DNA of 48,757 nt from the sequence record PV340577; one strand, given 5' to 3'. Position 1 is the first letter of the stretch; each line of letters opens with the position of its first letter. The translations under genes and the position numbers were made by a program. Of the stretch, positions 46,998 through 47,741 are shown piece after piece. The notes beneath the pieces are model-generated. The model saw only the letters and a list, made by a program, of their open reading frames with translations, was not told the origin of the DNA and did no database searches. This DNA is from Escherichia phage PhiR70_1.

Positions 46998-47741
46998 ATG
47001 GCAACTACATGTTCAGTTATATTGATTTTGGAGTCCTTTGATGTTTATTTCGGAAAAGAGAGTGTGTTTCTGGAGAGAGGTTCATCTGTACTTGTCGACT
47101 CTAGCTCTAGAGATTTTTTCCTGACATATCCTGAAAGAGTGATAGTGGCGGATTTTGGCGCTGAGTTTATTAGTCGCTATTTGAAAGCTAATAACTTAAG
47201 GGATATTTCTGATTGTAGGGAATATCCATCTTATTTAAAAATAAACTTTGCTGACTTCAGTTTAATTAAAGGATTAATTAGTTGGGCTAATCACTGTGCT
47301 GAATACATAGAAATTTTTGATGAGTCTATTGCTTTTACATGTCTCTCTGCATTTTCTTCTGAAAAACAATTTGGAGTATTTCTGTTTGAATGTTTGAAAA
47401 GCACAGAGGCTAAAGTTAAAACGATTATTCATACGGATTTATCTGCACCATGGCGTCTTAAGGATATATCATCAAGATTATATCTCAGCGAAAGTTTACT
47501 AAAGAGGAAATTGAAAGAAGAGGGGGTATCATTCAGTAAGATCATACTTGATGAGAGGATGCAAATGGCTGAATATTTACTCAGCACTCGTTGTTATCCT
47601 ATTAGTAAAGTAGCTAAGGTCTGTGGTTATGCCAGTGTCTCATACTTTACTTATGTATTTAGACGTTATTTTGGTGTTTCTCCAAGTCAATACTCTCAGA
47701 GGAGTTCAGAAAGTAAAATTCTTACTCACCAGGGAATCTGA
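46998..47741 (+). CDS. AraC-family transcriptional regulator, AppY-like
   Basis: C-terminal WRLKDISSRLYLSESLLKRKLKEEGVSFSKIILDERMQMAEYLL...GYASVSYFTYVFRRYFGVSPSQY parallels AppY as recalled; AT-rich. Confidence 0.65.
   Translation: MATTCSVILILESFDVYFGKESVFLERGSSVLVDSSSRDFFLTYPERVIVADFGAEFISRYLKANNLRDISDCREYPSYLKINFADFSLIKGLISWANHCAEYIEIFDESIAFTCLSAFSSEKQFGVFLFECLKSTEAKVKTIIHTDLSAPWRLKDISSRLYLSESLLKRKLKEEGVSFSKIILDERMQMAEYLLSTRCYPISKVAKVCGYASVSYFTYVFRRYFGVSPSQYSQRSSESKILTHQGI

Follow-up and report, generated by a model that had tools for sequence, protein, structure and literature searches.

A prophage-borne PatE regulator at the right end of Escherichia phage PhiR70_1 and a cassette whose left part looks like a fossil serU attachment site

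Introduction

About 1 kb from the right end of Escherichia phage PhiR70_1 lies an AT-rich gene for an AraC-family regulator, which raises the question of which regulator this is, what it would do for a lysogen, and how it came to lie at the edge of a phage genome. A preliminary description, made from the letters of the sequence alone, had read it as an AppY-like regulator carried as prophage cargo behind a long AT-rich leader. Here we return to this locus with comparisons at the level of the protein, the prophage, and the surrounding DNA. The window referred to throughout is the whole stretch of DNA analyzed, the 48,757 nt of record PV340577.

The regulator to which our comparisons lead, PatE, was reportedly first characterized in E. 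coli O157:H7 EDL933 in 2012, and an abstract of that year by Bender et al. is said to have located patE 'between Z0321 and Z0322'. A 2024 review gives PatE as encoded on OI-8 of EDL933 (z0321) (PMC10877973); this discrepancy in naming is immaterial, because the CP-933H prophage of EDL933 contains only one AraC gene. According to the same review, the EDL933 allele of PatE activates gadB, gadC, gadE, and hdeAB and is more highly expressed in stationary phase, the action of PatE on the hdeA promoter maps to -132 to -45, the expression of six LEE genes is lowered by PatE, and PsrA/B act via gadE/yhiF and hdeA (PMC10877973). AppY directly activates gadE and raises acid resistance, and the paper on it cites PatE and PsrB as further AraC regulators that act on the AR2 system and are encoded by prophages (PMC10057817). 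Reprogramming of host stress responses by a prophage regulator is already published for PatE, PsrB, and AppY (PMC10877973; PMC10057817).

Results

An intact AraC-family gene

The gene is real and intact, and it encodes a full-length AraC-family regulator. Its reading frame is uninterrupted on the + strand from the ATG at 46998 to the TGA at 47739-47741 and specifies 247 amino acids, with an in-frame GTG at 46989 as an alternative start that would add 3 aa. The 248 aa first attributed to it include the stop codon, whereas the assignment to the AraC family is borne out by Pfam: HTH_AraC (E 1.3e-16) and HTH_18 (E 8.7e-16) both match residues 158-235, so that a chance ORF can be dismissed. The product has the ~100-aa C-terminal DNA-binding domain with two helix-turn-helix motifs that marks the AraC/XylS family, and it matches PHROG 1450, a phage protein family without annotated function, over its full length (E 3.9e-94). 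At 34.9% GC, compared with 49.4% for the whole window, and ~1 kb from the window end and the prophage attR, it is AT-rich coding DNA near the right end, as had been described. Disrupting mutations had been raised as a reason to doubt the gene; relative to the O157 reference protein we find no frameshift, internal stop, or truncation, and since all 247 of 247 positions align without a gap, the gene can be regarded as undisrupted.

The regulator is identified as PatE

The encoded protein is identical to Sakai ECs_0287 at 245 of 247 residues, with no gaps, and the same holds for WP_000246059.1 of EDL933. ECs_0287 is the last gene of Sakai prophage Sp1 and adjoins thrW; the thrW-adjacent prophage of EDL933 contains a single AraC-family CDS, WP_000246059.1, with coordinates as for ECs_0287. 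From these comparisons we identify the gene, with high confidence, as patE of CP-933H/OI-8/Sp1.

A complete prophage related to DLP12

The window spans a whole prophage. A lambda-type integrase gene with Arm-DNA-bind_1 and Phage_integrase domains occupies positions 75-1145 on the - strand, and the sequence that opens the window before it is recognizable as the lambda P' arm. At the other end the lambda att core TTTTTTATACTAA lies at 48741-48753, and the window ends with this core followed by CTTG; the arm sequence within the prophage attR (Table 1) is recognizable as a lambda-type attP P arm. The same right end abuts ybhB-bioA in APEC O78, ETEC1738, and commensal IAI1, a locus that is the classical lambda attachment site. 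Because the integrase lies at one end, the att core at the other, and ybhB-bioA beyond the right end in relatives, patE is placed inside the prophage, in a slot between the tail-fibre genes (42820-45312) and attR, and the description of the gene as prophage cargo is upheld.

TABLE 1 Features at the right end of the window, in order of position
Feature	Positions	Strand	Remark
Arm-like diverged sequence, partly similar to Sp14 right end (O157 Sakai)	46301..46352	+	BLASTN
serU tRNA-Ser(CGA) 3' 62 nt, anticodon loop to CCA	46353..46414	+	Identical to MG1655 from GGTCTCGAAAACC
Copy of the chromosome directly downstream of serU (serU-yodB intergenic), 277 bp	46415..46691	+	
IS630-family right-end remnant, 55 nt; junction of captured chromosome and patE DNA	46692..46746	+	
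AT-rich patE-specific upstream region	46747..46997	+	99% identical to Sakai Sp1 upstream region
patE CDS	46998..47741	+	247-aa AraC/XylS-family activator; E131 and E137 allele
IS3-family transposase (integrase-core) remnant without N-terminus	47783..48235	-	ORF 47783-48148
IS3-family orfA transposase N-terminal fragment	48299..48445	+	ORF 48293-48514
Prophage attR: arm sequence, att core, first bases of bacterial arm	48520..48757	+	

Positions 10281-16816, a 6.5-kb segment containing emrE, ybcK, ybcL, ybcM, quuD, and the start of nmpC, are 99.2% identical to DLP12, a cryptic prophage of K-12, and a further 2.6 kb (16833-19384) are 93.7% identical to it. Positions 45350-48741 match the equivalent stretch of phage mEp332, for which K-12 MG1655 is the recorded host, at 98.7% identity. 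In DLP12, appY follows tail-fibre assembly remnants, and the equivalent slot here holds patE. The association with DLP12 that had been drawn for this locus is therefore correct for the position but not for the gene, which is patE rather than appY. The prophage is complete and has the appearance of an intact DLP12 relative.

Several features away from patE were also recorded. The porin gene nmpC (16775-17857, - strand) is present without an IS5 interruption. A second AraC-family regulator at 13701-14498 (+) is identical to K-12 YbcM at 265 of 265 residues, and its neighbors are ybcL (PEBP family, 13140-13691) and ybcK (a 508-aa serine recombinase, 11149-12675); according to the AppY paper the YbcM regulon has never been characterized (PMC10057817). 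In the early-left region, positions 5239-6350 (-, 34% GC) include a 203-aa ORF with an MqsA-antitoxin domain (E 2.1e-17) that adjoins a 167-aa ORF without a Pfam match, and the two may form a toxin-antitoxin or defense pair.

PatE and AppY belong to one clade but are different regulators

In BLASTP comparisons of PatE with its K-12 paralogues, YdeO aligns over 248 aa (35% identity, 147 bits), GadW over 245 aa (33%, 142 bits), GadX over 161 aa only (35%, 107 bits), and AppY over 236 aa (28%, 114 bits). An xCSVIxI N-terminal motif is common to PatE, AppY, YdeO, GadW, and GadX, and PatE can be aligned at full length with AppY, YdeO, and GadW, so the placement of the gene in the AppY, YdeO, GadW, and GadX clade stands. 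A specific resemblance to AppY does not survive the comparison, AppY being by identity the most distant of the four.

The alternative closest to the original description is that the gene is an AppY orthologue, or a functional replacement for AppY, regulating anaerobic and stationary-phase operons (hya, cbdAB-appA). The common AraC subfamily, with alignment over 236 aa, and the same post-tail-fibre slot, in a prophage with 6.5 kb of DNA at 99% identity to DLP12, would both fit such a reading, as would the activation of gadE and the gain in acid resistance published for AppY (PMC10057817); indeed, because AppY itself acts directly on gadE and raises acid resistance, the physiological outputs of the two regulators probably overlap. 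Orthology, however, is refuted by identity: the protein is 99% identical to another named protein, PatE, and only 28% identical to AppY, the lowest value among the K-12 paralogues. The best K-12 paralogue is YdeO for PatE and GadW for AppY, with no reciprocal best match between them; the AppY model is absent from the 25 best NCBIfam matches of PatE, and BLASTN finds no DNA similarity between the patE region and the appY region of DLP12. We rejected the gene as an AppY orthologue on these grounds (identity, reciprocity, and the lack of homologous DNA at the locus) and consider the alternative as a whole very unlikely.

Two other assignments were tried and dropped. The top NCBIfam model for PatE is that of YdeO (NF007407, residues 1-235), but the score of 148.7 bits is far under the curated cut-off of 348 bits for this equivalog. 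Membership in the Psr type (PsrA/PsrB) was set aside on 39% identity to PsrA (ECs_1087) and on position, patE adjoining attR rather than lying downstream of Q. The gene should be named PatE rather than AppY-like; it is an already known regulator and not an AppY-like novelty.

A composite cassette around patE

A cassette of ~1.9 kb, from 46353 to ~48220, is common to O157 Sp1 and the window at ~99% DNA identity. Position 46353 is where the identity with Sakai Sp1 abruptly starts on the left, and the right limit at ~48220 falls inside an IS3 remnant. Read from left to right, the cassette consists of a 3' fragment of the serU tRNA, 277 bp of serU flank, an IS630 end, patE, and the IS3 remnant (Table 1). 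The long AT-rich leader that had been proposed at 46414-46997 is thus a composite, half of which is captured core chromosome. Its AT-rich character holds for 46692-46997 (34% GC) only, while the first half belongs to the core-chromosome copy at 46353-46691, with 44.5% GC.

The junction at 46692-46746 matches, at 92.9%, the terminal ~34 nt of an IS630-family transposase CDS together with the ~22 nt that follow. Downstream of patE, the larger IS3 remnant corresponds to a RefSeq pseudogene at the equivalent place in APEC O78 and other strains, and its Sakai copy is annotated 'ISEc48 Family: IS3 partial'; the RefSeq equivalent of the orfA fragment is given as 'transposase, missing C-terminus'. We note that patE is in this way bracketed by IS debris, with the IS630 remnant upstream and the IS3 remnants downstream.

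Two candidates for RNA features at this locus were rejected. A phage tRNA gene was one of them: ARAGORN detects no whole tRNA anywhere in the window, which makes the serU sequence a mere fragment. For a structured leader or sRNA upstream of patE, Rfam gave no match at gathering score: nothing in 45000-48757 reaches it, and the weak matches at 46359-46494 (tmRNA, sX4, plastid) all lie on the tRNA fragment. A match to Rfam IS009 at 45252-45452 spans the full length of the model but is sub-threshold (82.4 bits, E 2.5e-18; gathering score 117). The tail-fibre-assembly remnant with which it overlaps shows 84% similarity to the tfaD/tfaX regions of DLP12.

A single sigma-70-like match, TTGGCA-18-TATACT, lies at 46935-46964, ~34 nt upstream of the patE ATG, and would predict a transcription start ~7-10 nt past 46964; promoter-like matches around patE are not above shuffled expectation, and a search after patE finds no terminator. 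In the same stretch, TTTTTTATACTGA at 46919-46931 is a lambda-core-like 13-mer, with 1 mismatch against 0.02 matches expected by chance, and the longer TTTTTTATACTGAAGTTTGGCA (46919-46940) resembles the lambda att core together with the start of the P' arm (TTTTTTATACTAAGTTGGCA) apart from two single-base insertions. This core-like sequence, which Sakai Sp1 has as well, extends into the -35 hexamer predicted for patE; it may represent a secondary att site or the scar of a recombination event, or may have arisen by chance.

A probable fossil attachment site at the left end of the cassette

The copy of the serU flank is ~96-97% identical to a locus at ~2.0 Mb in 5405 of 5426 complete E. coli genomes, and the window is colinear with the serU locus of MG1655 for ~339 nt from the anticodon loop. 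We note that this 339-bp stretch, ~97% identical to the host serU locus, could serve homologous recombination with the chromosome. A lambda-like prophage, Sp14, is integrated at serU in Sakai, adjoining yodB. The tRNA fragment starts at the same base (GGTCTCG...) in the window and at the tail-fibre-end junction of Sp14, and in BLASTN window positions 46301-46689 match Sakai 2668256-2667868 at 92.5% over 389 nt, an alignment that reaches 52 nt leftward beyond the tRNA fragment. Because the Sp14 junction matches and has the same start base, the left part of the cassette looks like the attR of a serU phage together with its flank, that is, from the sequence, like the fossil attR of a serU-integrating lambdoid phage.

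We looked for a surviving donor arrangement with a chimeric probe in which the 5' half of K-12 serU and its upstream DNA were joined to a window fragment containing the serU fragment, the upstream region, and the start of patE. No complete E. coli genome (0) has patE beside an intact serU. A donor arrangement surviving in E. coli was accordingly dropped, and for the same reason the capture scenario below is framed without one. Copies of the Sp1 type have a tRNA part that exceeds that of the window by 5-9 nt and a left flank that is unrelated, a combination that would fit a later exchange at the tRNA core.

In lambda-bio transducing phages, flanking DNA is taken along by aberrant excision. A comparable history is the simplest one for this locus, and we infer that patE may originally have been acquired when a lambdoid prophage integrated at serU excised aberrantly, and that it passed from one phage backbone to another afterward. 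Under such a scenario, a prophage integrated in the anticodon loop of serU would have excised aberrantly and, along with its attR junction, removed 277 bp of chromosomal flank and a patE gene that was bracketed by IS elements and then lay beside serU; exchange at the tRNA core would later have brought the cassette onto unrelated backbones, including those of the lambda-att phages mEp332 and ev099, whose genomes are on record as complete. Taken as one account, in which the cassette is a fossil of specialized transduction, was moved by tRNA-core exchange, and spreads an acid-resistance activator beyond EHEC, this reading is offered tentatively, as a plausible history rather than the probable one. 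If it were true, an acid-resistance activator would be spreading in commensal, avian-pathogenic, enterotoxigenic, and environmental E. coli, and not only in EHEC.

Distribution of patE

At a threshold of at least 95% identity, 658 of the 5426 complete E. coli genomes (~12%) have patE, nearly always as one copy, and the genome records of phages mEp332 and ev099 contain it too. The right end of the window recurs over its full 2.56 kb in 90 genomes. In every context examined patE is the last gene at the prophage right end, on two kinds of backbone: lambda-att siphovirus-type prophages, and prophages of the thrW/pao region with baseplate genes, a Pin invertase, and a GIY-YIG gene.

More distant relatives of PatE (83% and 52% identity) are encoded after the Q antiterminator and before the holin gene, and PsrA has the same location in Sakai Sp4. 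This Q-to-lysis slot of lambdoid phages is the one used by stx genes. With relatives at 83%, 52%, and 39% identity lying between Q and the lysis genes, the PatE subfamily occupies at least two cargo slots. The presence of relatives at 52-83% identity within the late operon, and membership in a phage protein family, PHROG 1450, that has no annotated function, might suggest that the main role of PatE lies in the phage life cycle, acting on phage promoters or in superinfection, rather than in host acid resistance. We find this hardly credible: patE itself lies in a non-essential region by attR, flanked by IS debris and captured host DNA, many related lambdoid phages are without patE, and the targets published for PatE, PsrA/B, and AppY are host genes (PMC10877973; PMC10057817).

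The E131/E137 allele

Two G-to-A changes at 47389 and 47407 (codons 131 and 137) distinguish the window from O157 PatE and result in G131E and G137E. Both residues are glycine in 12 of 12 aligned prophage homologues, and the corresponding columns hold N, T, S, or R in YdeO, GadW, AppY, and GadX. The double-Glu allele occurs in 18 of 656 E. coli records, including commensal IAI1 and several seawater isolates; PatE of phage mEp332 has both glutamates, and that of APEC O78 has E131 only. In the predicted model, residues 131 and 137 lie on either side of the short loop that joins the N-terminal region to the DNA-binding domain. Since the paralogues vary at these columns and mEp332 carries both changes, G131E and G137E are probably tolerated, and disruption of PatE by the two Gly-to-Glu changes was set aside on the same two points.

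The allele and its surroundings nevertheless raise the alternative that patE is silent or attenuated cargo, either through H-NS-type silencing of AT-rich DNA or through weakening of the protein by G131E/G137E. The gene (35% GC) and its upstream region (34% GC) have the composition that silencing would call for, the two substitutions replace a glycine found in every aligned prophage homologue, the allele is a minority one, and IS remnants on both sides indicate a decaying neighborhood. The ORF is, however, fully intact, and across 658 genomes and differing phage backbones its nucleotide identity stays at 95-100%. The same double-Glu allele recurs in phage mEp332 and commensal IAI1, positions 131 and 137 vary (N/S/T/R) among functional paralogues, and the EDL933 allele is reported to be expressed in stationary phase (PMC10877973). 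We consider silent or attenuated cargo unlikely, and hold with moderate confidence, as a matter of inference for both expression and activity, that the E131/E137 allele is active in its present host.

Predicted structure

An AlphaFold2 model of PatE, built from a 13-sequence alignment, has a mean pLDDT of 69.5 and a pTM of 0.52, and its confident part is the DNA-binding domain, which superposes on the GadX domain 3MKL with a TM of 0.91 and an rmsd of 1.8 A at 43% identity. Residues 1-135 have no Pfam match; the modeled N-terminal region is β-rich, with a pLDDT of 64-76 to residue 70 and of <50 at 71-86 and 98-118. At full length the model is structurally closest to CsvR, Rns, and ToxT, in the same ranking as in a sequence search of solved structures. 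These virulence regulators, which have a fatty-acid-binding N-terminal domain, have a two-domain layout in common with the predicted PatE model, but at a global TM of only 0.37-0.41 and 19-22% identity. With the N-terminal domain and linker modeled at low confidence, a ligand pocket cannot be claimed for PatE.

Discussion

We consider it very probable that the locus is best explained as patE, acting by the published acid-resistance mechanism, carried as lysogenic-conversion cargo, and situated in a travelling cassette. By analogy with the EDL933 allele, PatE most likely activates hdeAB and gadE directly, with better acid survival of the lysogen. The gene would be transcribed from its own promoter, chiefly in stationary phase, and the C-terminal double helix-turn-helix of PatE would bind AT-rich sites upstream of acid-fitness-island genes (at hdeA, -132 to -45). 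Activation of gadE, gadBC, and hdeAB would then allow the lysogen to survive extreme acid better, and in LEE-positive strains PatE would also lower type III secretion gene expression. As lysogenic-conversion cargo, patE occupies a non-essential region that extends from the tail-fibre genes to attR.

The discovery value of the gene as such is small, as prophage AraC regulators in the GadE acid-resistance circuit are established (PatE, PsrA/B, AppY). Our additions are modest: the fossil serU attR, and the occurrence of patE on lambda-like phage genomes outside EHEC. PatE is not EHEC-specific, being present in commensal IAI1 among ~12% of complete E. coli genomes and in lambda-like phage genomes, and its occurrence in sequenced lambda-like phages means that lysogenic conversion to higher acid tolerance may be transmissible. 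The cassette, with its fossil serU attR and chromosomal flank, would keep the trace of a phage capturing a host-side gene.

Among known systems, PatE of O157 (EDL933/Sakai; CP-933H = OI-8 = Sp1) is the nearest. It has the same length, serU fragment and flank, AT-rich promoter region, and downstream IS3 remnant, and it is likewise the last gene before the prophage right end. The O157 prophage, however, is degraded, integrated at thrW, and equipped with a Pin invertase and a GIY-YIG gene, whereas that of the window is complete, of the lambda-att type, and, in its relatives, beside ybhB-bioA. The window differs further from the O157 locus in G131E and G137E, in a tRNA fragment whose left junction is 5-9 nt shorter, and in its left flank.

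PsrA/PsrB of O157:H7 and 243-aa homologues in the 1H12 and Lambda_ev phages are, like PatE, prophage-borne AraC-like proteins of the PatE subfamily. The 243-aa group, from natural lambda-like phages, is 52-54% identical to PatE, and Sakai PsrA as annotated, at 195 aa, is shorter than PatE. Genes of the PsrA/B type (ECs_1087, P0007, and the 1H12 homologue) occupy the stretch from the Q antiterminator to the lysis genes, whereas patE adjoins attR. AppY of DLP12 is, like PatE, an AraC/XylS regulator that follows the tail-fibre remnants of a lambdoid prophage, but further targets and effects have been published for AppY (hya, nhaR, gadY, and FlhDC degradation) that are not reported for PatE. YdeO, GadW, and GadX are chromosomal AraC regulators of acid resistance; patE, in contrast, lies outside both the acid fitness island and the EvgAS-controlled locus and is horizontally mobile.
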